Below are positions 5,422 through 60,978 of a stretch of DNA of 64,000 bases, piece after piece (position 1 is the stretch's first letter; each line of letters begins with the position of its first letter). Source of the DNA: Candidatus Omnitrophota bacterium. Its GTDB lineage: Bacteria; Omnitrophota; Gorgyraeia; B26-G9. Below the pieces are notes generated by a model that saw nothing but the letters and a program-made list of their open reading frames with translations, was not told where the DNA came from and made no database searches. A program made the translations under genes and the position numbers. The stretch spans positions 6,283-70,282 of the forward strand of contig JAZDHG010000034.1 in assembly GCA_043806135.1 (NCBI GenBank), read 5' to 3'.

Positions 5422-6318
5422 CTATTGTTCCCCAGCGATCTTTCGCAGATATTCAGAGTAGCTTGTTTTCATCTGGCCGGCAAGTTTTAATAACTGCTCT
5501 TTTGTTATATACCCTTTTTTGTAAGCTATCTCTTCCAAACACCCGATCTTTAAACCCTGCCTGTCTTCAATGGTCTTGATAAAAATAGAGGCGTCAATAA
5601 GAGAATCATAAGTTCCTGTGTCCAGCCATGCATACCCCTGCTTTAATAGCCTTACCTTCAGCTTTTTATCCTTTAAATAGACATTATTAAGGTCTGTGAT
5701 CTCAAGCTCTCCCCTGGCTGAGGGCTTGATGTTTTTAGCGATCTGCACAACCTTATTATCATAAAAATATAATCCGGTGATCGCCCAATGAGACCTGGGA
5801 TTTTTTGGTTTTTCGACTATAGATACCGCATTATTGTCATTGTCAAATTCAATTACACCGTATCTCTGCGGGTCTTTTACATAGTATCCAAAAACGCAGG
5901 CACCAGTTTCCTGCTCAACCGCCTTCTTGAGCTCATATTCCAGTCCTGCACCGAAAAAGATATTATCTCCTAAAACCAGGCAGACCTTGTCATGAGCGAT
6001 AAAATCCTCTCCGATAATGAACGCTTCTGCTATGCCGCGGGGTTTATCCTGCTCGGCATATTGCACTTTAAGTCCAAAATCACTTCCATCACCGAATAAA
6101 GCTTTAAACTGACCCAGCGCCTCCGGGGTGGAGATTATAAGCACCTCGGTTATGCCTGCCTGCATCAGCACGGAAAGAGGATAATATATCATCGGCTTGT
6201 CGTAAACCGGCAATAGCTGCTTGCAGACACCTTTTGTTATCGGATATAACCTGGTCGCCTTGCCTCCGGCTAAAATAATACCTTTCATTATTGCTCCCTT
6301 TCCACAGGTATAATCCAC
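5422..6318 (-). CDS. rfbA: Glucose-1-phosphate thymidylyltransferase
   Basis: 298 aa. N-terminus [39 protein letters not shown] is the canonical RmlA nucleotidyltransferase motif. Only 2 nt separate it from rfbC. Confidence 0.9.
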
Positions 6319-6480
6319 AAATATTATCTGGATTATACCTGATTACAACGATTAATATTAGATTGCAACGATTAAACCATTAATCTCCGCACTTGACAGC
6401 TTTTATTGCCAAAATTTATTAATAGCCCAACCTTATATCCTGACACCTTTAGATACGATATAACTTGCAATTCAAATACA
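6296..6480. repeat. Conserved 3' flank of the GxxExxY cassette (copy A). It has an inverted repeat ggtataatcc-N16-ggattatacc and a direct repeat gattacaacgatta/gattgcaacgatta. Recurs at 33991-34180.
   Basis: Direct nucleotide alignment of 6296-6480 with 33991-34180, about 85% identical and including the last ~35 codons of the GxxExxY ORF. Confidence 0.6.
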
Positions 6481-6743
6481 GCAGGCACCTTACCTGATAG
6501 GGCTTTAATTTCAGTTACAATTTTGTCTTCCACAACTAAATCCATCCTCAATTTACCGATATTTTCTTTCTGAAACAAAATATCAAAACTTTTCTCAGTT
6601 TGATAGCTTAGACCATTCTCTTTTAAGGTTATTTTAAAAGCGTTATGGTATATTCTCTCATTGAATCCAGGACCAAGTTTACTATGCACCTTATAAGCGC
6701 AGGCGATTATTTTATCAGTTAAAGGATCTCTTTCCTTAATCAC
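6372..6743 (-). CDS. GxxExxY family small protein (putative PD-(D/E)xK fold)
   Basis: 123 aa. Contains the GPGFNERIY motif (G-x-x-E-x-x-Y). Length and motif placement are typical of the family. It sits in an intergenic slot whose flanks are repeated elsewhere in the window. Confidence 0.75.
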   Translation of the reverse strand: MIKERDPLTDKIIACAYKVHSKLGPGFNERIYHNAFKITLKENGLSYQTEKSFDILFQKENIGKLRMDLVVEDKIVTEIKALSGKVPAVFELQVISYLKVSGYKVGLLINFGNKSCQVRRLMV

Positions 6744-8530: not shown

Positions 8531-9884
8531 CTATCCCCTTTATTTTCTTAAGCTGCTTGATATTGATACCCTTTAATGAATTGATATTATCAAGCGCCCT
8601 GAGCAGGATCTGCCTTCTAACCTTGCCTATGCCGGGTATCTGGTCAAGTTCAGACATGAGCATCTGCTTTTTGCGCAAATTGCGGTGATAGCTCAAGGCA
8701 AAGCGATGTGCTTCGTCCCGGATAGCCGCAATAAGTCTTAAAGCCTTGGAATTAAGCGGCAAAGCTACGGGCTTGTTCTGCCACTGGACATAAATATGCT
8801 CGAATTTTTTGGCAATACTGATTATCGGAATATTAATTTTCAAACTATTAAGCTGCTCTAAGGCGCATTTTAGATGCCCTTTGCCGCCGTCGATAAGAAT
8901 CAGCTCGGGCAGATCAAGTGCAACCGAAATATCACCGGTAAAACGCCTTTTCAGTACTTCCTGCATCATGGCATAATCATCAATCCCTTTTACAGAATTA
9001 ATTTTAAACCTGCGGTAATCCTTTTTGTAAATTCGGCCTTGCTTAAAACGCACCATAGAGCCTACGGCCTCAGAGCCTGATATATTGGAGATATCATAGC
9101 CTTCGATATAAACAGGGCGCCTTTTTAATCTAAGGACTTTCTGCAGTTCCTCGACCTGGTCCGCAACGGCAAAGCGCTTGTAACCAATCGGCACAGAACT
9201 TAAGCTTTCGATCTTATCGCGCAGCTCAAGCGCAGCTTCGAAATTATGAGTTAAAGACGCGGACTTCATTTCATCAGAAAGCTTTTTTATCAGATCTGTT
9301 TTTTTGCCCCTCAAGAACAATAAAAGATTATTAACGTTTTGTTCATACCCCTCTTTACTTACCAGCCCCTGGCAGGGCCCCGGGCAGATCTTGAGATGAT
9401 AATTAAGGCATACAGACTTAGGCATCACATTACAAACTCTGAGCGGAAATATCCTGCGCATGAAATTCAGCGCCTGGCGCAATAGTTTTCCTGATGTGTA
9501 AGGCCCGAAATATTGCGCCCTGTCCTTTTTCCGGCGCCTTACAATACGCAAACGGGCAAATTTTTCGTCTGTGCCGAGGCGCAAAAGCGGATAGGCCTTG
9601 TCGTCCTTTATGTCTATATTAAACTTCGGCTTGTTTTCCTTGATAAGCCCAGCTTCTAAGATCAGCGCTTCGGCTTCGGTTGAAGTGGTAATAAATTCTA
9701 TATCAGCGATCCCACTTACCAGCAGTTTCAGCCTTTGCCCCTTGGCTGAGGAACCGAAATAAGAACTCACACGTTTTTTGAGTGATATCGCCTTGCCGAT
9801 ATAAATAATGGCCCCGTCCTTATCCAGCATTAGATAAACACCGGAGCCATCAGGCATTGCTTTTACTTTATCGCTTAAATTCAT
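8484..9884 (-). CDS. uvrC: Excinuclease ABC subunit C (compact form)
   Basis: 466 aa. N-terminal GIY-YIG (GVYLMLDKDGAIIYIGKA), a UVR-domain-like FEAALELRDKIESL, an endonuclease core and C-terminal HhH (IPGIGKVRRQILL..GIDERTAKNI). Confidence 0.75.
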   Translation of the reverse strand: MNLSDKVKAMPDGSGVYLMLDKDGAIIYIGKAISLKKRVSSYFGSSAKGQRLKLLVSGIADIEFITTSTEAEALILEAGLIKENKPKFNIDIKDDKAYPLLRLGTDEKFARLRIVRRRKKDRAQYFGPYTSGKLLRQALNFMRRIFPLRVCNVMPKSVCLNYHLKICPGPCQGLVSKEGYEQNVNNLLLFLRGKKTDLIKKLSDEMKSASLTHNFEAALELRDKIESLSSVPIGYKRFAVADQVEELQKVLRLKRRPVYIEGYDISNISGSEAVGSMVRFKQGRIYKKDYRRFKINSVKGIDDYAMMQEVLKRRFTGDISVALDLPELILIDGGKGHLKCALEQLNSLKINIPIISIAKKFEHIYVQWQNKPVALPLNSKALRLIAAIRDEAHRFALSYHRNLRKKQMLMSELDQIPGIGKVRRQILLRALDNINSLKGINIKQLKKIKGIDERTAKNIIEHWNKY

Positions 9885-14571: not shown

Positions 14572-14940
14572 TTAAGCGTTGCTGCAGGTTATTATTTCCT
14601 TCAAATGCACACGGCTTTCAATATTCATCTCAGAAAACTCAATGCCGATCTTATACTTCTCCTGGTACGGAACCTGCTCTACCCATACTACCCTGCCTAG
14701 AGTAATTATCGGCTCTGTATCATTAGAGGGAAAGATCTCAAGAATCATTTTAGAATTCACGGGGTAAAAATAAAACGACGAAAGCTGTATACCGCTTTCG
14801 CTGCAATCATGGGTCATTGAATTGTGAATTATCCCCGCGTGTTCTTGAAGCATTTGTCTAAGCTGTACAGGAAAGTCCGCGTTTTTCCTAAAAAATTCTC
14901 TGCGTTCTTTAACTGCTCCTTGGACAGTCATAACTATCAC
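14572..14940 (-). CDS. Stand-alone PilZ domain protein (c-di-GMP receptor-like)
   Basis: 122 aa with RREFFR (RxxxR) and DCSESG (DxSxxG) at canonical spacing. Confidence 0.7.
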   Translation of the reverse strand: MIVMTVQGAVKERREFFRKNADFPVQLRQMLQEHAGIIHNSMTHDCSESGIQLSSFYFYPVNSKMILEIFPSNDTEPIITLGRVVWVEQVPYQEKYKIGIEFSEMNIESRVHLKEIITCSNA

Positions 14941-15105: not shown

Positions 15106-18100
15106 ATGAAAAAATCAGCGGCCTTTTTTTTTCTGTCTACGTTCTTCCTCATCATCGGCATAGTGCTTGCCGGAGGGTATTTTCTTTTTGAACTTGTGCT
15201 CATGCCAAAATTTATAATCCCAACGATCTGCCGCGAAGCTGAAGTCCGGCTTGGACAAAAGCTTACCATTGCAAATATAGACATCAACCGCAAAGGCACA
15301 GTCCTCATAGATAAACCTGTGCTTTATGCCCGGAATTCTAAGGAAATTATGCTTGAATGCACTCAGATCAAAATAGTCCCCGGATACAAAAGAATTTTTG
15401 ATTCCTGGAAGATTAACGGCAATAATCCGAAAATCCCCATGAATATATACTTAAAAGAAATAAAACTAAGCCAGGCTCCGCTTATAGTTTCAGGTGATAT
15501 TGTTTCTGATTTTACTCTCACGCTGGACTTCAAAGATCAAAATAATATTGACTGGGGCGGCAATATAACACTTAAAGCAATTAAAATTAGTGGGGTGCCG
15601 GCTGTAGGCGACATTACTAATATAAACGGAAACATCGTGCTTTCCAAAAACTCTTTAGTAAGCCATGACATTCAGGGCAAAGTTAACAATGAGACGGCAA
15701 AACTGGAGGTTTTAATCAATGATTTTAAAAATCCGGAGCTTCTCCTGCAAGGTGAGCTCTCCCCTCTTAAATTCAATCTGGATTGTGTGCTGTCCGGAGA
15801 AGATTTAAACATCAATGAAATAAAAGCCAGTTATAATCAGCTTCAGCTGCGCGTCTCAGGCCAGATCATGGATCTCAAAAATAAGGCCGATGCCCGCATC
15901 ACAGCTGACCTCAGCCTGGAACTGGAGGAGCTTAAGAATTTACCGCTGGACATAAAAGATATTTTAAATAGCACAAACCCCCGCGGGTTAATCCAAGCCA
16001 ACATAACCGTTAACGGTCCGCTGAAGGACATCTCGCTGCTTGAAGGAAGTGTTGCTATTGCCTGCCCAAAGATTTTCGTGCTGAATTATGAAGTTGATAG
16101 CATTAAAATAGCCGCGCAATTGCAAAACGGCAAAGCAACCATAAACACCCTGGAAGCCATGTTTTTAGGAAGCACTATCTCTGCTGAAGCAGACATGAAT
16201 ATAATGCCCGGCAACCTGCCTTATAATGCAAGCGTGAAGATCCTGGACGCAAAAACAGCACTAATTCAAGAGAATTTCATGCCTGATCTAAAACAAGCGA
16301 TCAGCGGCACCCTTAGCGCCAATATTCACGCTCAAGGAAATGTTTTGGATTTAAACAGGATTAATGTACAGGCAGATGCCCTTCTAAGCGATCTGATATT
16401 TGACAAATTTGCGTTTACAGAGCCTATCGAAGCAAATATTGATCTTATTTTAAAGAACCGAAAAGATATTATAGTCAAAAAACTCACACTTAGTGACAGC
16501 ATTATATCCCTTATTGTTGACGGTAGCATTACGGATATTAATCATCCTAAGGGAAACCTTGCCGGTAATCTATCTGCTGATATTAATAAACTCAATTCTT
16601 ATGGATTCCTCAATTTACCCGGAACTCTCACATTAAGCGGAAAACCCAGTCTTGACATTAAAGTCTCTGGTGATCTGCTGAAATTTCAGGACCTGAATCT
16701 GCCATTTAAACTGCACTCCCCAACACTCGGAATAAACCAGTTCAATCTGGATGAACTTGACATCGAGGGGCAATTCAAACAGATGAAATTAGACGTTTCA
16801 ACTCTCACCATGAAACTTTATGAGGGACAATTATCGGCAAAGGCTAAACTTGACCTGGCTGATATGCAAAAACCGGTTTTTAATTTCAATGCTAATTTAA
16901 GCAATGTTGATCTGGGGGCAGTTGCCAAAGGCACAAAACTCATTCCTGAAGGGTTTCAGGGAAGATTTTCGACAGAAATGCTCGTAAGCGGCAGCGGAAT
17001 GGATCCCGAGGGATTAAATGCTGTTATCAAAGGCAGCATAAATCTCGAAAATGCAAAGATGAACGATATTGCACTTGAAAAAGTACAGGCTAACCTGGAT
17101 GTGCAATATGCAAATACTGATATTGAACTCAAAGAACTGAACATACTCTATAAAAATATCGAAGCAGCGGCTCATGGAAAGATCGAATCAGTATTGAAAA
17201 ACCCCAAAATTAATGTCAGTGCAAGATCAAACATTGACCTTGAAGATTTAAACAAACTTCCCTTTGATTTCAAAAAAACTCTTGATGAGTTGGACCTGAA
17301 GGGCATTGTAGATGCTAAGCTGCAGGCATCCGGCCCACTCGCTCAATGGCAGCAGATGGATATTAACGCTAATATCAAATCTAAGGAGATGTCGGTAAAA
17401 AAAATAAAACTGCGCGATGCGGATATCTCCGGTAATCTAAGCAGCAGAATTTTAAACTTGAGCGCATATTCACTCAGCTATGACGGAACTCTGGAATTAA
17501 AAGCAGTTGCTGAGTTTTTGAGCGATAATTTTAAATACAAAGGTACTGCCAAAATTGACAAAGTAAACATAGGCAGCCTTATTGAAGAATCAAAAATTAT
17601 TGCGCAGCCCCACAAAGGTATTTTTTCACTGGGAGCAGACTTCAGCGGTCTGGGTACAGATTTAAATACAATTGAGTCCAGTGTCAATGTCCAGCTTGAA
17701 CAGGCACAGATAACCGGACTAGAATTAATGCACACGATAGGACAGCTGCTCAACCTTAGCTTTTTAAGCAGCTTTGAAGTGACCGAAGCAAAAGGAACAT
17801 TTGGCGTGAAAAACAGTAATATCCATACAGAAGATACCACCCTTATCGGGCCTGAAGCCAGCATCATGGCCAAAGGTGATATTAATTTTAATCAAAGTAT
17901 TAATCTTGCAGTAAAACTACTCCTAACTCCGGAATCTGCTCAGCAGACCAGTTCTCAAGTACTTGATAAATTCTTTACTTTAGAAAACGAGCAGTATTTT
18001 ACCGAGCTTGATGTAAAAGGGACACTAACAGTTCCAAAGCCAGACCTAAGTAAGTTTATGAGGGAAAGGATCGGCTCTCAGGTAAAAAATGAGATCAATA

Positions 18101-18620: not shown

Positions 18621-19310
18621 TTAATCTAAAAAGAGGCTTTTTATCTTGCCCAATTCTCTCTGGTAATTTTTTTGAGAATCAATAAAAGACTTGTAATTAA
18701 GCTTCTCTAATTCTATGCTGCTGTCAAAGTCACAAATTCCTTCTAAATCTTTCCGCTTGCTAAGATATTCTTTGATAGATGAATACCGCCACTCTTCTGC
18801 ACTTTCCACTAATCCAGCTGTTACTGGATTCAAGTGAACATAACGGGTCAAATGCAGCAATTGCTCATCTGTTTCAACTAAAACATTTTTAAACCGGCTT
18901 TCCCATAGCGGTCCTTTCCTAGATGTTCTAATATTAAAAAATCTCGAATAGCTATTTAAGATATTTCCCATAAAAATAACAATACCTTCCTCTTGAAGCT
19001 GCTTTAGCACGAGATGAATATGTGTAGGCATAATGCAATATGCTATTATTTCCACTAAAAAATCCTTGCTGCTCCAATGCTTTTCAATGAAAATAGTCAT
19101 ATTTCTAATTTCTAAAAATTTAGAAAATTTTACACCTGTGTTTTTTATGCGATAATACTTAAATAAATCTATAATTCTATTATAATCATTCTTTGTGTGA
19201 AATATTTTATACCCTGCAATGCTTTTTGAATAAACATGGTAAATACCGCCGCTACTTAAAATGTTTTTCCTTCTCATTGATCTTCTCCTATTATCTAAAT
19301 TTGCCCACAC
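18621..19310 (-). CDS. REP-associated tyrosine transposase (IS200-like Y1/HUH transposase)
   Basis: 229 aa. HUH motif CIMPTHIHLV, plus GPLWESRF, YVHLNPVTAGLV and WRYSS (catalytic Tyr region). Flanked on both sides by GC-rich palindromes. Confidence 0.8.
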   Translation of the reverse strand: MWANLDNRRRSMRRKNILSSGGIYHVYSKSIAGYKIFHTKNDYNRIIDLFKYYRIKNTGVKFSKFLEIRNMTIFIEKHWSSKDFLVEIIAYCIMPTHIHLVLKQLQEEGIVIFMGNILNSYSRFFNIRTSRKGPLWESRFKNVLVETDEQLLHLTRYVHLNPVTAGLVESAEEWRYSSIKEYLSKRKDLEGICDFDSSIELEKLNYKSFIDSQKNYQRELGKIKSLFLD

Positions 19311-25588: not shown

Positions 25589-27154
25589 ATGAAAAGAACC
25601 CATATTTTAAAAGAGAGGTATGTTTTGTTAGCTAAAGCTTTTAGTGCCGGCATATCGGGAATAAACGGGTATCTTGTTGAAATTGAAGCAGATATAGCAA
25701 AAGGCCTGCCTCAGACATCCATTGTCGGATTGCCGGATACCGCGGTTAAAGAAGCCAAGGATCGGGTCCGCTCAGCAATAAAAAACAGCGGGTTTGCCTT
25801 TCCGGTTAAAAGATTAACTATTAATCTGGCACCTGCTGACACTAAAAAAGAAGGTTCCGCATATGACCTGCCAATTGCGCTCGGGATATTGAGCGCATCA
25901 GGAGTTGTCCCACAGGAAAGTTTAAATGAATTAATTATCTTAGGTGAGCTGTCTCTTGATGGAACCGTAAAACCGTTAAACGGTATAATTTCTATGATAC
26001 TTGGTGTCAGGAATATGAAAAAATCAATTCTAATTCCAGCCGAAAACGCAAAAGAAGCTGCTGTTGTCAGCAATGCTCCTGTTTATCCTGTGTCCAATCT
26101 CAAGCAAGCTGTCAGCTTCCTAAACAAAGAGCTGGAAATCCCGGCTCAAAAGACAACGGCAAAATCCGAATTCAAAAAACATTCAAGTTATGAAGTAGAC
26201 ATGTCTGATGTAAAAGGCCAGGGTTTTGTTAAAAGGGCATTAGAGGTTGCTGTAGCCGGAAATCATAATATACTGCTGATCGGGCCTCCCGGCTCAGGCA
26301 AAACAATGCTTGCCAGGAGAATTCCCACAATAATCCCGTCTCTTTCCCTGGAAGAGGCGCTGGAAACAACCAAACTGTACAGCATCAGCGGCCTGCTTGC
26401 CAAAAACCAGGCACTTGTCAGCAGAAGGCCTTTTCGCAGTCCGCATCACACGACCAGCGATATAGCCCTTGTAGGAGGCGGTTCTAACCCCAAACCAGGC
26501 GAGGTCAGCCTGGCGCATCATGGAGTGCTTTTTCTTGATGAGCTGCCTGAATTCAATAGAAATGTATTAGAATCACTGCGTCAGCCTCTTGAGGACGGAT
26601 TCGTGACTATATCGAGGGCAGCGCGCACTTTGACCTTTCCATCACGGTTCATGCTTGCTTGCGCCATGAATCCCTGCCCCTGCGGATTTTTCACTCATCC
26701 GACCAAGGCCTGTAATTGTTCGCCGCACCGGATCGAACAATACCGCTCCAAAATCTCCGGGCCGCTCTTAGACAGGATCGATATTCATATTGAGGTACCC
26801 CCTGTTGATTACAAGCAGCTTGCCGATGAGCCTCAGGGAGAGTGTTCGGCAGAGATTAAAAAAAGAGTTGAGAAGGCCAAAAAAATACAATACAAACGTT
26901 TTAAAAAAAGTAAAATCTTCGCCAATGCCTATATGTCTCACGCTCAGGTCAAAACGCAGTGTAAACTGGACGAGGCGTCAAAGAAACTATTGAGAATGGC
27001 CATTGATGAGCTGGGTTTATCGGCAAGGGCTTATGATAAGATTTTAAAAGTAGCCAGAACAATCGCGGATTTATGCGCAAAGAAAAATATTAATAGCGAG
27101 CACATATCAGAAGCGATACAATATCGGAGCCTTGACAGGAATATTATTGGTTAA
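25589..27154 (+). CDS. comM: YifB/ComM-family Mg-chelatase-like AAA+ ATPase
   Basis: 521 aa. N-terminal Lon-SSD-like GLPDTAVKEAKDRVRSAI, Walker A GPPGSGKTM and a C-terminal ChlI-like domain. An alternative TTG start lies at about 25628. Confidence 0.85.
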   Translation: MKRTHILKERYVLLAKAFSAGISGINGYLVEIEADIAKGLPQTSIVGLPDTAVKEAKDRVRSAIKNSGFAFPVKRLTINLAPADTKKEGSAYDLPIALGILSASGVVPQESLNELIILGELSLDGTVKPLNGIISMILGVRNMKKSILIPAENAKEAAVVSNAPVYPVSNLKQAVSFLNKELEIPAQKTTAKSEFKKHSSYEVDMSDVKGQGFVKRALEVAVAGNHNILLIGPPGSGKTMLARRIPTIIPSLSLEEALETTKLYSISGLLAKNQALVSRRPFRSPHHTTSDIALVGGGSNPKPGEVSLAHHGVLFLDELPEFNRNVLESLRQPLEDGFVTISRAARTLTFPSRFMLACAMNPCPCGFFTHPTKACNCSPHRIEQYRSKISGPLLDRIDIHIEVPPVDYKQLADEPQGECSAEIKKRVEKAKKIQYKRFKKSKIFANAYMSHAQVKTQCKLDEASKKLLRMAIDELGLSARAYDKILKVARTIADLCAKKNINSEHISEAIQYRSLDRNIIG

Positions 27155-27244
27155 AAATTTTTTACTTATAGATATCTCGTTAACGCTCGAGATCAATTCG
27201 TCCTTACACTTTACTCCATTTATTCAGTAAAGTGCGGACTCATT

Positions 27245-27293
27245 GAGCATATCGCTGAGGCCATTCAATACAGGAGTCTGGATCAAAATATAG
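27245..27293 (+). repeat. Diverged duplicate of the comM 3' end (last ~17 codons), a possible integration or recombination scar
   Basis: 27245-27293 translates to EHIAEAIQYRSLDQNIV, against EHISEAIQYRSLDRNIIG at the comM terminus (27098-27154). 13 of 17 codons differ at the nucleotide level but 14 of 17 encode the same amino acid. The copy is not in frame with comM. Confidence 0.5.
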
Positions 27294-27312
27294 TTTCTTT
27301 AAAAAACATACG

Positions 27313-28938
27313 ATGTTTAACAAAAAAATAATATATCTGCTGTTCTTCTTGTGTATAATCATCGCTTCGGCTTTAAGATTATTCACACTTTTTCATACCC
27401 ATCATCTGGATTTTGAGTCCGTATTCCGCATTACCGAGTCCTATCAGTATTCTAAAATAAGCCCCTGGTATCATTTTTGGCACCTGGGTATAATCAGCGG
27501 CGGTACAGGCGGACAACGCGGCTACTACCTTCTCAACTCCTTGTTAATGGCCATTATAAACCAGCCTGACATGGTTGCCCGCTTTAGCAGCATGGTTTTT
27601 GCGGTATTATCAATTATTTTCTATTTTCCGCTTTTAAGGCTGCTGTTTACAAGAGAAATCTCCTTAGCCTCGACATTTGCGCTTGCTTTTTACCATGTTC
27701 ACATTCAGTTAAGTGTTGTACCAATGGCTAATGCCGGATTTATTTTTTTCACGATAATATCCCTTTATTGCCTGCTGCGTTTGTGTTTTTTTAATAGTAC
27801 CGCAAACAGCAGATTTCTGCTTTTCTTAACAGCGTTATTTACCCTGCTGGCGACAAGTTTCAGATTAGAAGCATGGTTACTTGTAATCGCATATCCGATA
27901 ATATTGCTTGTTAAGAAGAAACCGTTAGCGGCAGTTATTTTATTTATTCTTTCATCTTTGTATATTGTAAATACTTTGTACTTAATGCAAAAATGCTTCG
28001 GCAATCCATTTATTTTTCTGCAAAACCCTCTTTTACACATACACGGAGCAAAGACCTCAATGGGATTTTTTGCTCATCCGGATAATCTGCCCTCTTACAG
28101 CAGTTTCCAAGGCCTGATCTGGATAGACACGCTCCGCTATTCGCTTTCAACGCCGCTTTTAATACTGGGCGCAATAGGAATGTTCGGTATCAGAAGCCAT
28201 AAGAAACAGGCGGCTTTCTTTTTCGTATTTTTTTGCTTTTTATTCATGCTCACCTTAAGACAAATAATAAGCAACCATTCGCCGTTTATCCGTTATGTCA
28301 GCATCCTTGCTGTATTCTTTATCCCGTTTATTCTTCAGGGCGCCAGGGATTGCGGTTCGCTAATTTTGAACTGCCTGAAACTTAAAATCACCTGGCGCAG
28401 ACCAGTATTGATGAGTGGAATTTTTGCATCTCTAATATTTTTTGTCTTTGTATCTTCTTCTCACCTGGTAAACGATTTTTATGCCATGCAATATCAGGAT
28501 AGTGTTTACATACTTGATAATTGGATGCTGAAAAATTCTAAATCAGGAGATCTGCTTTTCAGTTCTTTTAACGACCTTGATACCCACGCAGCGGCCATAG
28601 CAAATAAATATGTCGTCAGTAAACCTCTTGATGAGAGAATTTTCATGTCCAGCTTGTATAATTTTTTATATAGCCGAGAGAATGCGATTGACCTGAGCAA
28701 ACAAGCGCCTTTTTTACCAAAAAGCATACAGGATAGTTTTTTCCCGATGTTTGATAATAGAAATATTTTTCTAAATCTAATACGCAGTAGAGAGTACAAA
28801 CAGCAAATCAGCAGGATAGTGTTTCTGTTCAAACCAGCTGATTTTAAATACCTAAAAGCACATCTGCCAAAACTTTTGAAGAAAGTATCATTCTCTTACA
28901 ACGGATTTATGTATTGCGGAATATTACCGGCTTATTGA
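27313..28938 (+). CDS. Polytopic membrane protein, putative GT-C-type glycosyltransferase
   Basis: 541 aa with more than 10 TM helices and no soluble catalytic domain. The GT-C-like topology rests on weak evidence. Confidence 0.35.
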   Translation: MFNKKIIYLLFFLCIIIASALRLFTLFHTHHLDFESVFRITESYQYSKISPWYHFWHLGIISGGTGGQRGYYLLNSLLMAIINQPDMVARFSSMVFAVLSIIFYFPLLRLLFTREISLASTFALAFYHVHIQLSVVPMANAGFIFFTIISLYCLLRLCFFNSTANSRFLLFLTALFTLLATSFRLEAWLLVIAYPIILLVKKKPLAAVILFILSSLYIVNTLYLMQKCFGNPFIFLQNPLLHIHGAKTSMGFFAHPDNLPSYSSFQGLIWIDTLRYSLSTPLLILGAIGMFGIRSHKKQAAFFFVFFCFLFMLTLRQIISNHSPFIRYVSILAVFFIPFILQGARDCGSLILNCLKLKITWRRPVLMSGIFASLIFFVFVSSSHLVNDFYAMQYQDSVYILDNWMLKNSKSGDLLFSSFNDLDTHAAAIANKYVVSKPLDERIFMSSLYNFLYSRENAIDLSKQAPFLPKSIQDSFFPMFDNRNIFLNLIRSREYKQQISRIVFLFKPADFKYLKAHLPKLLKKVSFSYNGFMYCGILPAY

Positions 28939-28957
28939 AAAGCAATTACAGCCGGGT

Positions 28958-30421
28958 TTAAGAATCAGGCAAGAACAAAATCACATCGGCAATGTCTTCA
29001 GCCATAACCTGATATCCCTGCGCACGACAATGGGGATCGTTTCTATCGACAAAAAACATATCATACGGATATCTGCGCAGCAAATCCTTAAATATTGGTC
29101 TGTGATCAACCAGAAAAACTTCATTTGCCACTGCCGCTTCTTTTAGCTTTTCAGAAAGTTCTTGAGGATATCCTGAGAATATTAAAGTGACCCGCCTGTT
29201 TTTGCAGATTCGGGCCATCTCATTTAAATTATCCAGCAGAATCCTATCTATTCTCTGTTTATTATAGATCAGTTCACTGTATAGCGAAAATCCGGTTATT
29301 CTGTCCCATGCTTTCATTAAATTCCTAAGGAAATAGTTCTGATTAAGCCTTTGCATTTTTACCTTGTATTTTGCCAGGTGATACCCGTTAAACGCATTGC
29401 TATCGTCAGTGTCCACAGTGCATGCCTTCCAGTAAAAACGTTTAGCCTGTTCATACTGCTTCTTCTGCATAAAAGATCCAGCAATCCATACGTATGATTT
29501 ACATAGTTTCGCTCTAAGTAAAACGTGATCAGGAAACTGTTCTAAAATACGCTCATAAAATTCAATCGCTTTTCCATAATCTGCCTGTTTAATAAATACA
29601 TCTTCTATTTCATTCAGAATGTTTGTTGCGAGGGGTTTTAAATAAAACGCCCTGAGTAGCATATCAATCGCTTCATCATGTCTACCCTGCAATTTATAAC
29701 AGCGCCCCTTTTCCAATAAGGCGGTTATATTTTCCGGTTCAGCTGCAAGTACATAATTATAAAGTTCATGCGCTTTTTGATACAGATTTTTCGCTCTAAA
29801 CTTGTTTCCTTGAGCGATATTTTTTTCACTATTCTGCTTTTCAGGCAAGGCAGCGCCTGTTTCATGTTTTTTCCCAAAAGAAAAACTCTTATTACTTTTT
29901 ATGAAACTGTTTTTAATATTATGAGTTAGTATAGCCGCCAAACGATATGTTTTAAGTTTTGAGATAAGACTCAACCATTTAACCTCAAGCGATGTCCCGT
30001 TTTTTGATACCTGTCTAAAATTCCAAACATCATTTTTACCAGCCATAACAATTGCAATACGCGGATTAACCGCATTTATAGATTCTTTCAGCTTAAGTAA
30101 AATCTCCGAAGAATTATAGCTGCAAACCCCATGGTTAAATACTTTAAACTCACCCTTCGCCTTGGAATTTTCGTTTAATATTTTTTCAAGCTGGACAGGA
30201 TAGCTTTTTGAAAAATCAGCGCCTAGCCCGTAAGTAAAGGAATCCCCCAGGCAAAGGACTCGACAAGAATCATCACTTAATCGCGCATAATTGTCTACCT
30301 TAAACTTCTTCGCATAAATACCGCTTGTTATTTGCAGGGAAAGTTCCAATAAAATTAAAACTAAAATAAAACTTAAAAAAACAAGCAATATGCGCTTTCC
30401 AGCTGTATTTTTAAATCTCAT
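28958..30421 (-). CDS. SGNH/GDSL hydrolase-family protein with internal TPR repeats
   Basis: CLGDSFTYGLG (GDSx block I) and AGKNDVWN (block III), TPR-like repeats mid-protein, and an N-terminal TM anchor. Confidence 0.55.
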   Translation of the reverse strand: MRFKNTAGKRILLVFLSFILVLILLELSLQITSGIYAKKFKVDNYARLSDDSCRVLCLGDSFTYGLGADFSKSYPVQLEKILNENSKAKGEFKVFNHGVCSYNSSEILLKLKESINAVNPRIAIVMAGKNDVWNFRQVSKNGTSLEVKWLSLISKLKTYRLAAILTHNIKNSFIKSNKSFSFGKKHETGAALPEKQNSEKNIAQGNKFRAKNLYQKAHELYNYVLAAEPENITALLEKGRCYKLQGRHDEAIDMLLRAFYLKPLATNILNEIEDVFIKQADYGKAIEFYERILEQFPDHVLLRAKLCKSYVWIAGSFMQKKQYEQAKRFYWKACTVDTDDSNAFNGYHLAKYKVKMQRLNQNYFLRNLMKAWDRITGFSLYSELIYNKQRIDRILLDNLNEMARICKNRRVTLIFSGYPQELSEKLKEAAVANEVFLVDHRPIFKDLLRRYPYDMFFVDRNDPHCRAQGYQVMAEDIADVILFLPDS

Positions 30422-30432
30422 AAAGGAACTCT

Positions 30433-31152
30433 TTATCCATCGGATATTGGTTTTCGCAAAACAGTAAAGGAAAAACTGGTCAGATACGCATTGGGAAAGC
30501 GCATTAAAAACCTTGTCGTCAGTTTATGCAGATCTCTTAATACCGGGATTTTTTTATAGTATTCATGCCCGAAAAACCCCCTGTATTCAATTATTTCAAA
30601 ACCGATCTTTTCAAGGTTATTGATCTGTTTTTTTATAGGACCGCGGCACCAGTTATAATGGGCAGAGAATCTTTTATGTTCGACTGGGTCGTTGCGCACA
30701 AAGAGATTAAAAATAAACTTCGCCAGAAACTCAGGCACAAACCGGTTGATAACAAAGGGCGGCGAATACAGCGTGGGGAAAAAGTGAAAAGCAATTCCGC
30801 CCGGCTTAAGCAGATTATATACATTGGTGTGAAAGATCTTAGCATCAAGCACATGTTCAGCAAGCATTTTAGAAAATATTAAGTCATATTTTTGCTCACC
30901 TTTAAGATCCGGATCGCAAATATCTGCCTCGACTTTTAAGTATTCTAAAGGCGCACGCTCAAGCTCAGCACGGGAGATATCCAAAACAGTATATTCAAGG
31001 TTCTGTTGTTCCTTTATCTGTTCAAGCGATAAAGCCGGAAATGCCCCGCCTCCTATCTCACAAACATGCTTTAGGCCATTATCTTTTATAAGCTCATTAA
31101 GACGGCTTAAATATTGCGGCCATGGGTCACTGGCATCAAAAATTATTTTCAC
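30433..31152 (-). CDS. Class I SAM-dependent methyltransferase
   Basis: VCEIGGGAFP glycine-rich SAM motif I plus LKPGGIAF motif. Confidence 0.65.
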   Translation of the reverse strand: MKIIFDASDPWPQYLSRLNELIKDNGLKHVCEIGGGAFPALSLEQIKEQQNLEYTVLDISRAELERAPLEYLKVEADICDPDLKGEQKYDLIFSKMLAEHVLDAKIFHTNVYNLLKPGGIAFHFFPTLYSPPFVINRFVPEFLAKFIFNLFVRNDPVEHKRFSAHYNWCRGPIKKQINNLEKIGFEIIEYRGFFGHEYYKKIPVLRDLHKLTTRFLMRFPNAYLTSFSFTVLRKPISDG

Positions 31153-34004: not shown

Positions 34005-34372
34005 ATAATCCGCATACATAAGCTGGATTATACCTGATTACAACGATTATTAAAAGATTACAAAGATTAAACCATTAATCTCCGCACTTGGCAGCTTTTA
34101 TTGCCAAAGTTTATTAATAGCCCAACATTATATCCTGATGCTTTTAGACACGATATAAACTGAACTCCAAATACAACAGGAATATTGCGAGCTATGACCT
34201 TAAATTTAACACGCTCCACCTATCTCCCACAGCCCACCGCGTAGGTGGGATGTAGGTGGGAAGTGGCATTGTGCAGGAGATTATTTTTTCAGTGGAGGGA
34301 TCTCTCTCCTTAATCACTGTAATCTCCCCTCTAATCTATGCGATCAAGACATCCTGCTACCTTCCCGTCATA
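34005..34372 (-). pseudogene. Decayed GxxExxY cassette (copy B). Start and C-terminal regions are retained, and the central ~270 bp is replaced by ~110 bp carrying a REP-like palindrome.
   Basis: 34295-34370 aligns to 6721-6796 with the start codon changed from ATG to GTG, and 33991-34180 aligns to 6296-6480. The middle segment (34221-34262) contains a tcccac..cccacc-gcgta-ggtggg..gtgggaa nested inverted repeat. It overlaps the 3' end of the following radical SAM gene by about 15 bp. Confidence 0.55.
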
Positions 34373-58005: not shown

Positions 58006-60978
58006 TTAAGCTGGCACTGCCTTATAAGCATTTATAAAAACAGACATATCTACAATCAGTTTACCTTTATCATTAGTAAAAATAGAAATAATATCATCAA
58101 AACTCATACCCTGGTTTTTCATCACATCAACCAGCTCAGCATGATCATATCCGGCAGCTACCATGGCTGCAGCAATTGCTCTATTATCAAGACCGTTATT
58201 TGATAAAAGATTGTAAGTATTTTCAGTAGTCTGCCCGCCCTGTTGAAGCCCCTTAGTTATACTGCTCCAAGAAACTGAACTATTAACCGCAGCCAAGACC
58301 ACATCTTCTGCCGAATTACCCCATAAGACTAACAAACTCACAACTTTATCTGTCTTACCCGCACCAGCATCTTCAAAAGCGCTAATAATTCTGGTCATAT
58401 CCCAACCCAGTGATTGCATTCCGATCATTAGGTTATCAACTTCACCATGGGAGCCGTCCAGCATTGCCGTTACTATTTCATCGTCACTTAAATTATTGTT
58501 AGTTAAAATCGTAAGTACTTCAAGCGACTCAAAACCATTTGTTTTTAATCCGCTGGCAATTTCCTTCCAGCTTGCACCAGCCTCTTGCACAGTGGAAACA
58601 ACTGCATCAGTTTCAAACCCGGCTTTAAGAAAGGCATCAACCAGTTCTGCGGCATGACTAGGTTTCCCCTTACTTGTAAACGCATCAATCACCTGGTTCA
58701 TATCACTGCCTTGATTCAACATCGCAGTTGCTATATCACCTGCATTATAACCGCCGGCAAGCATCGAAGTAACGATTTTTGAATTGCTTAATCCATTTGA
58801 TGTTAAAACCGTAAAAGTATCAGCAGCGCTTACACCTCCCTGCTGCAAACCTTGCGTAATCGGGTCCCAGTCAATCTTTGCCTCTATCGCAGCAGTAACC
58901 ACTTCATCAACGGAAACTCCGGCTTTAACCAAAGCAGCCACAACTGCAGCCCCCTGGCGAACCACATTGGATTCAGTTACCGTTTCTGTTTCCGTTTCTC
59001 CATCTGTGCTGGTTGTTGTAACAGACTCTTCTTTAAACGCTTCAAATATGCGGGCGCTATCCCATCCCAGGGTAACCATGCCCTGAACCATTTTGCCGAT
59101 ATTCCCTCCGCCTTTATCCATCATTGCGCTTACAACTTCCTTATCACTAAGGCCGTTATCTTTAAGGTATTGAACTATTTTATCAAAATCAGCATTGCCA
59201 AATTCCATTCCCTTGGCAATATCTTTAACCTTCATCCCTGCTTCTTTTGCAGCCGCAGCTATTTCTTCAAAGGTATATTTGCCTGATTTCATTAAAGCAC
59301 TGACCACCGATTTTCCTACTTTAACATTAACAACAATTTTATTTTTGAATGCCTTAAATATAGAATTCATATCCATTCCCAGATTGATTAGTCCGGCAAC
59401 AATACCGCCGGCATCTCTGCCGCTATCAAGCATCTTTCCTACTACCTCAATGTCGCTTAACCCCTGTTCAGATAGAATAGTATAGACCTCCTCTGAGCTC
59501 ATACCAGTTGATACTAAACCCTTGGTAATATTCTCCCAGGATGTCCCCGCCTTTCTGACTGCCGTAATAACCTCTTCTGCTGAATATCCGGCTTTTATCA
59601 AGCCTGTAACAACTGCTGCATCATCCTTAGCTCCGTCAAAAGAAGCAATAATTGTCTCCATGCTCCAGCCCAACTCGTTCATGGCGATTACCATGCTGCC
59701 AGCGCCGAAATTTGTATTCTTACGCAGAGCATCAACTATTTTCTTTTCCGTTAATCCGTTTGACTGTAAAATTTCAATGATTTCACTTATGGTTGAACCG
59801 GAATTTTTAAGGCCCAAAGATATTTTATCCCAGCTGATTCCGGCCTTACTTGCTGCACTGACAACCTCTTCTATGGTAAATTTTTTCGAGTTGATCAAAG
59901 CCACGCAAAGCAGCTCTCCCTTGGAATTTCCTTCAGTTTTAAAAGCATTAAAAATTTCCTCAGCACTTTTTCCCATAGCGATCATTGCATTTACCAGATC
60001 GTTAGTGTTAGTGCCTCCATCAAGAAGGTATCCTACAACTTTGCTTTCACTGACCCCCTGTTCTTCCATAACAGAGAACACTTCTTCAATACTCAAACCG
60101 CCGGCACTTAGTCCAGCCACTATATTTTTAATGGAAATCCCTGCTCCCTTTGCAGCAGAGATAACATCATCAGTGGAAATTCCTGATTTAACCAATGCTG
60201 CCACCACCTCAGCAGCCTTACGCACAATACCAGTGTCTACATTTTTAAATGACTTAAAAATTTGGTCAGTGCTCATGCCTTGGGCAATCATTCCCTTAAC
60301 AATATCACTTGTAGTATAGTTGCCATCAAGCATCATTGTTACAATCTGCCTATCTTCATAACCGGCATTCTGCAAGATCAAAAGAACTTCCTGAGCCGAT
60401 GCGCCGGACTTTTTAAGCGCAGTGACAATTTCCGTATATGAATATCCCTTTGCAATTAATGATTTTGTCATGTCTTCATAACTTACCCCAGCATTTTCAA
60501 GTGCTGAGTTATCAGCCATAACCTCTTTTTGATTATTAACTAACGCGGCAGGCACTACTTTAGCGGCCTCTTCTTTGGAAAATACCTCAGCAATCAAATT
60601 ATAGGCAACATCCCCATATCCCAGAGAAATAAGCCCCAAAGCAATATCATTGCTGGAAAAACCTGATTTCTTTAGAGTGCTTACAATATTACTTAAATCT
60701 GTTCCTGCACTCACAAATCCGGTTATTAAACCTTTTACATCTTCAACGGTTGAAGCGCTTTGCTGAGTATTACTACTTCCTCCCGTATTTATATACTCTG
60801 TAGTCACTGGTTTTCTGTTAACTTGATCATCGCTAATTTCCTGATTTACATTTGTATCTGATGTTTGCGGGTCAATCTGTTCCGGCAAAATAGCGCCATG
60901 AAGCATCCCGTAAGCTCCAAGCGTAAACAGAAAAACTATCATGAGATTAATAATAGTGAACATTTTCATGATAAGCAC
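58006..60978 (-). CDS. Large secreted tandem-repeat protein (about 9 helical repeats of ~95 aa) in the PilY1 position. Putative pilus-associated factor of unknown family.
   Basis: 990 aa. Signal peptide MKMFTIINLMIVFLFTLGAYG. Repeats follow the pattern ..VVAALVKAG.S.D.V..A...AGISW..I..GL...G.S.EEV...L...GLS...IV..MLDGG....D.V..M...G.....I..AFK. Confidence 0.6.
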   Translation of the reverse strand: MLIMKMFTIINLMIVFLFTLGAYGMLHGAILPEQIDPQTSDTNVNQEISDDQVNRKPVTTEYINTGGSSNTQQSASTVEDVKGLITGFVSAGTDLSNIVSTLKKSGFSSNDIALGLISLGYGDVAYNLIAEVFSKEEAAKVVPAALVNNQKEVMADNSALENAGVSYEDMTKSLIAKGYSYTEIVTALKKSGASAQEVLLILQNAGYEDRQIVTMMLDGNYTTSDIVKGMIAQGMSTDQIFKSFKNVDTGIVRKAAEVVAALVKSGISTDDVISAAKGAGISIKNIVAGLSAGGLSIEEVFSVMEEQGVSESKVVGYLLDGGTNTNDLVNAMIAMGKSAEEIFNAFKTEGNSKGELLCVALINSKKFTIEEVVSAASKAGISWDKISLGLKNSGSTISEIIEILQSNGLTEKKIVDALRKNTNFGAGSMVIAMNELGWSMETIIASFDGAKDDAAVVTGLIKAGYSAEEVITAVRKAGTSWENITKGLVSTGMSSEEVYTILSEQGLSDIEVVGKMLDSGRDAGGIVAGLINLGMDMNSIFKAFKNKIVVNVKVGKSVVSALMKSGKYTFEEIAAAAKEAGMKVKDIAKGMEFGNADFDKIVQYLKDNGLSDKEVVSAMMDKGGGNIGKMVQGMVTLGWDSARIFEAFKEESVTTTSTDGETETETVTESNVVRQGAAVVAALVKAGVSVDEVVTAAIEAKIDWDPITQGLQQGGVSAADTFTVLTSNGLSNSKIVTSMLAGGYNAGDIATAMLNQGSDMNQVIDAFTSKGKPSHAAELVDAFLKAGFETDAVVSTVQEAGASWKEIASGLKTNGFESLEVLTILTNNNLSDDEIVTAMLDGSHGEVDNLMIGMQSLGWDMTRIISAFEDAGAGKTDKVVSLLVLWGNSAEDVVLAAVNSSVSWSSITKGLQQGGQTTENTYNLLSNNGLDNRAIAAAMVAAGYDHAELVDVMKNQGMSFDDIISIFTNDKGKLIVDMSVFINAYKAVPA

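Follow-up and report, generated by a model that had tools for sequence, protein, structure and literature searches.

A diverged second comM 3′ end behind an intact comM gene in Candidatus Omnitrophota, a likely scar of recombination

In a contig of an uncultured Candidatus Omnitrophota bacterium (GTDB lineage Omnitrophota, Gorgyraeia, B26-G9; GenBank assembly GCA_043806135.1, contig JAZDHG010000034.1), the gene comM is followed, 90 bp behind its stop codon, by a second, diverged copy of its own last 18 codons. The window analysed here is the whole stretch of 64,000 nucleotides from position 6,283 to 70,282 of the contig, and coordinates are those of the window unless another locus is named. 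We lean towards reading the second copy as a scar left by recombination in the past, with a single non-homologous junction at 27244|27245; the process would be homology-facilitated illegitimate recombination with displacement of a 3′ end. The second copy and the DNA behind it are homologous to the junction between comM and a glycosyltransferase gene (GT39) in related lineages, from which the window differs by a single block of 147 nt. The genes next to comM turn over between relatives, and genes for recombinases are absent between 27 and 64 kb of the window.

The intact comM gene (25625..27154, + strand) was delimited from its open reading frame and translation. It encodes a YifB/Mg-chelatase-like AAA+ ATPase of 509 amino acids, starts with a TTG codon at 25625 that is preceded by GAGAGG, and is neither interrupted nor split. 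Its product is 100% identical to P0001, a protein from a metagenome-assembled genome of Candidatus Omnitrophota, and 88–90% identical to P0002–P0006, each of 509 aa. The close relatives P0002–P0018 (70–90% aa identity) are all approximately 509 aa long and share the C-terminus EHI[AS]EAIQYRSLDRNI[IVL]x*. As defined by tail comparison, the functional tail, hereafter copy 1 (27098..27154, +), consists of codons 492–509, encoding EHISEAIQYRSLDRNIIG, at 27098–27151, and the TAA stop at 27152–54. Copy 2 (27245..27301, +) encodes EHIAEAIQYRSLDQNIVS, followed by TTA in the place of a former stop, and was recognized by its homology to the tails of comM genes from GT39-bearing lineages. At 27245–27298, it repeats the last 18 comM codons (27098–27151) in direct orientation and in the same reading frame. 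The onset of homology at 27245 is abrupt. At the other end, homology runs past 27293, where the original prediction had placed the end of the repeat, and continues through the former stop and a short intergenic stretch into the start of the next gene.

The original prediction had described a duplicate of the comM end, diverged mainly at synonymous sites, about 90 bp downstream of the gene, and this is confirmed. The spacer is exactly 90 bp long, and over the 17 codons then compared the copies share 14 of 17 amino acids and 34 of 51 nucleotides (67% DNA identity). The 17 nucleotide differences are split 4/1/12 over codon positions 1/2/3. When 17 random substitutions were simulated under neutrality, the mean number of amino acid changes was 10.3, and none of 200,000 runs kept to three or fewer (P<5e-6), so that the conservation of the peptide is significant. 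The duplication therefore bears a signature of purifying selection. The next-best 17-mer in the six-frame translation of the window matched at fewer than 8 of 17 positions, and the window holds no further copy of the tail.

Over the first 45 nt, copy 2 is identical to copy 1 at 30 positions and to the functional tails of most other clade members at 33–38, which is the usual tail-to-tail distance between lineages of the clade; to the tail of the related lineage L092, it is identical at only 29. About three changes are private to copy 2, two of them disabling, and its decay is seen in the replacement of the invariant R of LDR by Q and in the TTA that stands where relatives have a stop; otherwise it conforms to the shared C-terminus of the close ComM relatives. 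Because the divergence between the copies is biased towards synonymous sites and copy 2 has so few private changes, the two tails must have evolved within working comM genes of different lineages and have been joined fairly recently. This agrees with the earlier proposal that the fragment comes from a different, once-functional comM allele, as does the ordinary distance of copy 2 to the tails of the clade.

These distances also bear on an in-situ tandem duplication of the comM tail and its downstream DNA, with later divergence of the copies. Such an event would give adjacent, direct and in-frame copies, and selected change in copy 1 combined with neutral change in copy 2 could yield an excess of third-position differences. 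However, copy 2 would then have drifted neutrally while copy 1 gained about 30% synonymous change, yet copy 2 retains 14 of 17 residues and remains 73–84% identical to the functional tails of most lineages, with its roughly three private changes. Moreover, close relatives lack the duplicate, and the spacer copies nothing nearby. We regard tandem duplication as hardly credible, and effectively refuted because copy 2 is conserved relative to the functional tails of other lineages. A diversity-generating retroelement, with its variable and template repeats, was rejected as well: the differences between the copies involve all four bases, not adenines only, and a reverse transcriptase is lacking.

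Four related Omnitrophota lineages (L092, L089, L087/L088 and L100) carry an intact comM followed, after about 10 bp, by the ATG of a GT39 gene. The junction reads ...NILS* AAAAATTCACG ATG in L092 (ComM 90% and GT39 83% aa identity to the window), ...NMIS* AAACCATACG ATG in L089 (GT39 77%), ...NIVS* AAAATCCACG ATG in L087/L088 (GT39 75%) and ...NIIS* AGATCAAT ATG in L100 (GT39 65%); that of copy 2 is ...NIVS-TTA-AAAAACATACG-ATG. The comM genes of GT39-bearing lineages end in ...NI[IVL]S*, and it is to these tails that copy 2 is homologous. In the window, the next gene (27313..28938, +) encodes a GT39/PMT_2-like membrane glycosyltransferase of 541 aa, assigned by a weak Pfam match to PMT_2 and by the homologues P0122–P0125; the PMT_2 protein of L083 was rejected as a further homologue, since it has no BLASTP similarity to it. 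Between copy 2 and this gene lies the conserved short stretch AAAAACATACG (27302..27312, +), compared with L089, L092 and L087. Copy 2, its former stop, this stretch and the beginning of GT39 form one unbroken alignment with the junctions of L092, L089, L087 and L100, and in a multiple alignment the 147-nt block is the single net difference between the window and these four lineages. Copy 2 thus once formed the end of a comM gene lying immediately before the GT39 gene at 27313, and the order comM, about 10 bp, GT39 and polysaccharide cluster is the ancestral layout in this Omnitrophota clade. The original prediction had proposed a search of related genomes for an uninterrupted junction downstream of comM. 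Such junctions exist, and these relatives do not share the duplicate; the finding is compatible with any insertion-type event and is not specific to an attachment (att) site.

The net block spans 27145..27291 (+; 49 codons, in frame; alignment against L092, L089, L100 and L087) and has three parts: the new end of the gene (T ATT GGT TAA), the spacer of 90 bp and the diverged copy of codons 492–507. AATAT borders it on both sides, and its exact placement is ambiguous within this repeat. The spacer itself (27155..27244; GC content 0.33) matches nothing searched. Its alignment to comM does not rise above that of shuffled sequences (p=0.3–0.98), so it is not decayed comM, and a longer orphan fragment reaching upstream into the spacer was rejected, there being no comM homology in it. 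It was not copied from the comM-downstream DNA of L081, L082, L091 or L002, a low-complexity 14-mer alone matching L081, and it is neither a remnant of the C-terminus of a convergent gene nor of any protein encoded in the variable slot described below. No exact match was found in the JGI metagenomes or IMG/VR and none in the phage collection, and the peptide of spacer plus tail has no relative in a large protein collection. An imperfect hairpin lies at 27200–27239, with the stem CACTTTACT/AGTAAAGTG at 27207–27215/27226–27234, but with a fold z-score of −1.5 the folding of the spacer is not unusual. The string '...ATTATTGGTTAA' together with the spacer provides sequence tags with which genomes of the same species or genus could be found.

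The spacer has no stop in the comM frame, the sole stop before copy 2 being the TAA of comM itself; the chance of such an open in-frame spacer is about 0.05. Past that TAA, the frame remains open through the spacer and copy 2 up to a TAA at 27329–31, overlapping the GT39 start. This may be a coincidence, or it may go back to a gene that formerly extended across the junction. It also enters into the possibility that copy 2 is kept for a function, either as a 5′ leader or promoter of GT39 or as part of a ComM extended by stop read-through. In relatives, GT39 starts 10 bp after comM, so that its expression signals must lie in the comM tail, and in the window a single TAA separates comM from an extended frame. 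Against this, no promoter-like site was found in the spacer and no terminator was detected there either, TAA lends itself poorly to read-through, no homologue of the spacer peptide was found and copy 2 carries disabling changes. A function of this kind would in any case address the retention of copy 2 rather than its origin, and we consider it improbable. We infer that copy 2 is a non-functional scar, most likely without function now beyond possibly carrying the upstream leader of GT39.

Since the arrangement comes from a metagenome, a chimeric join of two co-occurring strains has to be weighed too. Related strains often co-occur within one sample, and P0001 and P0121 each occur on a single 70.8-kb contig. 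A misjoin in the assembly graph, however, needs a shared k-mer at the joint. None exists there, the spacer being unique and the longest identical run between the copies being 5 bases. The decay of copy 2 (R to Q, lost stop) is not expected in the comM of a functional strain, and analogous structures occur in independent assemblies (L002, L120 and L123, described below). An assembly artefact is, in our judgement, very improbable.

The DNA behind comM is variable over a short distance only. The variable stretch, 27155–30432, is a slot of 1–4 kb between comM and a methyltransferase gene, and its content differs from lineage to lineage. L089 has GT39 only; L087 has GT39 and three genes (MCP, NMT1-like and periplasmic-binding-protein); L081 has one other, unrelated gene; L082 has a cytochrome c gene and a gene for a 983-aa protein. 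The window holds GT39 and a gene for an SGNH/GDSL hydrolase with TPR repeats (28958..30421, −; 487 aa; Pfam), which is absent from L089, L087, L081, L082 and L083. The SGNH/TPR gene was found in no relative examined, making the GT39|methyltransferase junction a second variable point of the slot.

The synteny of relatives resumes at 30433 with the methyltransferase gene (30433..31152, −), the first of a conserved polysaccharide cluster, whose product is 84–85% identical to that of L081, 83% to that of L087 and 82% to that of L089. From there, the methyltransferase, GT2, two B12-radical-SAM genes, a methyltransferase and GT4 are collinear with L081 and L082, and the first cluster genes are collinear with L087 and L089 too. 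Amino acid identities of the cluster to L081, L082, L087 and L089 (72–86%) equal those of the housekeeping genes upstream of comM. Between 30 and 57 kb, the minus strand carries a single coherent polysaccharide cluster, after which come a repeat protein and pilin-like genes. GC content stays between 0.34 and 0.42 throughout the window, evenly, and profiles of GC and of GC at third codon positions (GC3) were uninformative both here and in L002. No integrase, recombinase or transposase gene was found between 27 and 64 kb of the window, and no integrase or recombinase gene in the slot of any relative, the one transposase-like gene close to such a slot being the Y1_Tnp found at the far end of L083.

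The original prediction had taken the 29-kb glycan and pilus block for an island that begins at the scar. This fails because the glycan cluster is syntenic and has diverged to the same degree as the housekeeping flank, and the even GC content gives no sign of a foreign block. That the scar sits at a boundary of variable content holds for the slot of 1–4 kb and not for the cluster beyond it. No integrase is visible, as had been said: none was found between 27 and 64 kb, and the window holds no second downstream copy of the comM 3′ end that could serve as attR. Both had been proposed as checks for the DNA further downstream.

Three features elsewhere in the window were recorded alongside. An IS200-like Y1_Tnp gene (18621–19310, −; 229 aa) is found at the corresponding syntenic site in those relatives whose loci extend over the region, with 65–77% aa identity, and appears to behave as a resident, possibly domesticated or REP-associated (repetitive extragenic palindrome) gene and not as an active insertion sequence. 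Within the polysaccharide cluster, the two B12-radical-SAM genes are separated by a gap of 366 bp, in which lies a partial and degenerate copy (34070–34317, −) of the PDDEXK_3-family gene at 6372–6743 (−), with 66% aa identity over 47 residues and an additional N-terminal piece; L081 has no gap between the corresponding genes. Between the polysaccharide export and pilin-like genes, a 990-aa protein (58006–60978, −) shows many scattered sub-threshold matches to short helical domains (UBA-like, RepB_primase_C and DUF7626) and no single significant domain stretch; it appears to be a repeat protein of unknown function.

Comparisons within the clade point to exchange at the boundary of comM and GT39. 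On either side of the scar, the distance to L092 is about the same (nucleotide identity 91% for DUF212, 83.5% for comM and 82% for GT39). In L092, the comM 3′ region is closest to those of L091 and L081 (86%), both of which lack GT39, while its GT39 gene is closest to that of L087 (87%). The comM of L089 is 74–76% identical to all others, and its GT39 82–83%. This incongruence between comM and GT39 distances indicates what are probably frequent recombination events at the boundary. The tail of L092 (2120–2190) also has a clean mosaic structure, in which the first 45 nt resemble copy 1 of the window and L091, and the last 9 nt, with the junction, resemble L087. It looks like a scarless version of the same exchange. 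Copy 1 is closer than copy 2 to the L092 tail over the first 45 nt (41/45 versus 29/45; Fisher p=0.0045), and the final 9 nt of copy 1 (ATT ATT GGT) resemble those of L091 (ATT ATC GGT), a close lineage without GT39 behind comM. At the 80–84% identity that separates the window from its nearest relatives, no breakpoint or foreign composition was detectable in comM or its flanks.

From the features of the locus, we infer a mechanism and a direction of events. The slot after comM would have been remodelled repeatedly through recombination between diverged lineages, and one exchange in the lineage of the window would have relied on homology at a single side. A complete comM allele, arriving with 90 bp of its own downstream DNA, may have displaced the resident comM down to codon 491; in the mirror image of this event, an incoming GT39 cassette with the last 18 comM codons of its donor may have been joined 90 bp behind the resident comM. 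In either form, the junction 27244|27245 would be non-homologous. Selection would have preserved the intact comM, and the displaced tail would have decayed since, with the change from R to Q and the loss of its stop. Displacement by recombination is favoured because the joint is sharp, recombinase genes are absent, the spacer is unique, the slot turns over and the clade recombines at this junction.

Several points weigh against displacement. At about 80% identity to the relatives, comM shows no breakpoint that could mark a homologous crossover. The tails and the distances of comM and GT39 are compatible with either side of 27244|27245, comM or the GT39 cassette, as the incomer, and the arrangement is known from one assembled contig. 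An open, in-frame spacer (p about 0.05) is what would be expected if a gene had once read through the junction. Formally, the arrangement is identical to icd–e14–icdC of Escherichia coli with the element shrunk to 90 bp. Finally, four other orphan comM 3′ fragments begin at motifs where serine-recombinase prophages join comM, so that the boundaries of comM orphans are generally non-random, which favours site-specific events.

These orphans come from a survey of approximately 170 comM loci and the comM contigs of IMG/VR. Three further loci, from distant lineages, carry orphan comM 3′ fragments behind an intact comM, four orphans in all, with mostly third-position divergence. In L002, the orphan (9458–9692; 87–88% nt identity) starts at DRIDIH. 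In L120 (16366–16921; 73% nt identity), it starts at CPCG, with a 'QG|CPCG' junction that is common to L096. L123 has two successive orphans (14717–14912 and 15155–15625; 85% and 78.5%), both starting at CPCG. They lie 2–5 kb behind the intact gene, with ordinary cargo genes between, and no recombinase lies between the copies in L002, L120 or L123. Orphaned comM 3′ ends beside intact copies thus occur at about 2% of loci, across phyla.

In proviral contigs of IMG/VR, 5′-truncated comM genes lie directly beside genes for large serine recombinases (comM and recombinase regions at 2187–4647 in L093, 3476–6192 in L094, 4057–6198 in L096/L097 and 4167–6195 in L098). The truncated genes start at residues ~276, ~210, ~346 and ~384, respectively, and in L096/L097 the recombinase reading frame is fused in frame to the comM fragment. 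Serine-recombinase prophages thus appear to split comM at several conserved motifs. L096/L097 also contains a second comM start (residues 29–70) at 9011–9136, about 2.8 kb downstream of the fused fragment and running off the contig end; a fragment upstream of another comM copy is the reverse of the order in the window. Because orphan boundaries fall at prophage motifs, the prior for a site-specific origin of comM orphans is raised, and differing breakpoints give no argument for random joints.

A site-specific integration scar in the style of icd/e14/icdC is a possible origin of copy 2, if an unlikely one. An element whose attP carried a homologue of the comM tail would have integrated into the comM 3′ end and supplied a new terminus, corresponding either to copy 1 as a whole or, with a crossover near AATAT, to the portion beyond that crossover. 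The original tail of the host would have stayed behind as an orphan on the attR side, and later deletion would have left just 90 bp of the element. In its topology, the locus matches exactly the insertion of e14 in icd, where a C-terminal pseudogene is likewise left behind (PMC13626634, PMC6379469). The mosaic fits a crossover at AATAT, the first 45 nt of copy 1 being L092-like and the end of copy 2 resembling the host junction. The orphans of L120, L123 and L002 start at CPCG and DRIDIH, where serine-recombinase prophages split comM in IMG/VR, and the spacer is open and in frame, like the fusion of recombinase and comM in L096. Yet integrase, recombinase and phage genes are absent from the slot and from 27 to 64 kb, as is a recombinase between the copies of L002, L120 and L123. 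There is no identical core, the longest run shared by the copies being 5 nt, although a short att core might have been erased by later mutation. A junction at codon 492 was seen in none of the ~170 comM loci nor in the IMG/VR comM contigs, a tail-only, attP-like fragment was not found in IMG/VR, and the spacer matches nothing. Among the first two genes downstream of comM at 65 diverse loci, no integrase family occurs in more than two. Such an origin also demands the near-total deletion of an element with both repeats spared. A match to the tail motif in L184 was discarded as a chance match inside a phage structural gene.

A bolder form of site-specific origin, which we think doubtful, would make codon 492, the start of the conserved EHI.EAIQYRSLDR motif, the attachment point of an unseen family of Omnitrophota integrative elements that bring their own comM terminus, with the 147-nt block as the last remnant of one of them. 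If this were true, the orphan comM 3′ ends of the window, L002, L120 and L123 would record repeated site-specific invasion followed by repair or decay.

Displacement by recombination, the reading we prefer, has its closest counterpart in the 3′-end displacement proposed for effector–immunity modules of the Vibrio type VI secretion system (T6SS) and for Rhs/contact-dependent inhibition (CDI) loci, of which orphaned 3′ regions are the well-described footprint (PMC5361080, where de Vries & Wackernagel 2002, Prudhomme et al. 2002 and Meier & Wackernagel 2003 are cited for the mechanism). As in those systems, an intact gene is followed by a diverged orphan 3′ fragment, one junction is without homology, no recombinase is needed, a conserved anchor stands beside variable content, and successive arrays of orphans can form, as in L123. 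Unlike their genes, comM encodes a housekeeping or competence ATPase and not a polymorphic toxin, so that there is no immunity-gene logic for retention; the displaced piece in the window is only 18 codons long, and the mechanism here would be the same by analogy.

The element e14 and phage 21 integrate into icd of E. coli K-12 and leave icdC, a C-terminal pseudogene (as outlined in PMC13626634 and PMC6379469, with Hill et al. 1989 cited there). The duplicated 3′ end, the mostly synonymous differences and the position of the orphan downstream of the intact gene are shared with the window. However, e14 is a 15-kb element with an integrase between the copies and homologous attL and attR, whereas the window has 90 bp, no integrase and no shared core. 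The gene comM is indeed an integration target in other bacteria, as the original prediction had stated: Tn7-like transposons of the Tn6022/AbaR group target comM of Acinetobacter baumannii (PMC11014353), and the serine-recombinase prophages of IMG/VR join them. Tn6022/AbaR share the target gene family with the window, but use one fixed point inside comM, interrupt the gene, generate a 5-bp target duplication and carry tnsABC/tniQ/tnsF, none of which is seen in the window. The serine-recombinase prophages share the target gene and have sharp junctions at conserved motifs, with which the boundaries in L120, L123 and L002 coincide; their junctions lie at residues ~210, ~276, ~346 and ~384 and not at 492, the recombinase adjoins, and their mechanism gives no duplication. 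The known elements that target comM thus split the body of the gene and supply no replacement terminus, and no element lies between the copies. They lend no support to the earlier reading of the arrangement as the hallmark of an element that replaces the end of its target gene.

Splitting of comM by serine-recombinase prophages would be analogous to the insertion of A118 in comK or of skin in sigK. Surface-polysaccharide loci, such as those for capsule and O-antigen, switch by recombination in conserved flanking genes. The window resembles them in having variable glycan-related genes between conserved flanks and signs of exchange between diverged lineages; it differs in that only a slot of 1–4 kb varies while the main cluster is conserved, and in that clean double crossovers leave no scar, as the event in the window did.

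The feature adds an example, from an uncultured phylum, to a known kind of footprint, in which the remnant of a 3′ gene end is orphaned where recombination has made a junction; it is not a new system. Its value is that of a marker, which locates such a junction to the exact base pair in a lineage of uncultured Omnitrophota. Read in this way, the short slot between comM and the conserved polysaccharide cluster would have been remodelled by exchange between lineages about 20% apart in DNA, and the tempting over-reading of the large glycan cluster as a mobile island is corrected. The survey suggests that the natural-transformation gene comM, a known Tn7-like target, is also split by serine-recombinase prophages, and the pattern of orphans could be of use in tracing how mobile elements and competence genes have been in conflict.

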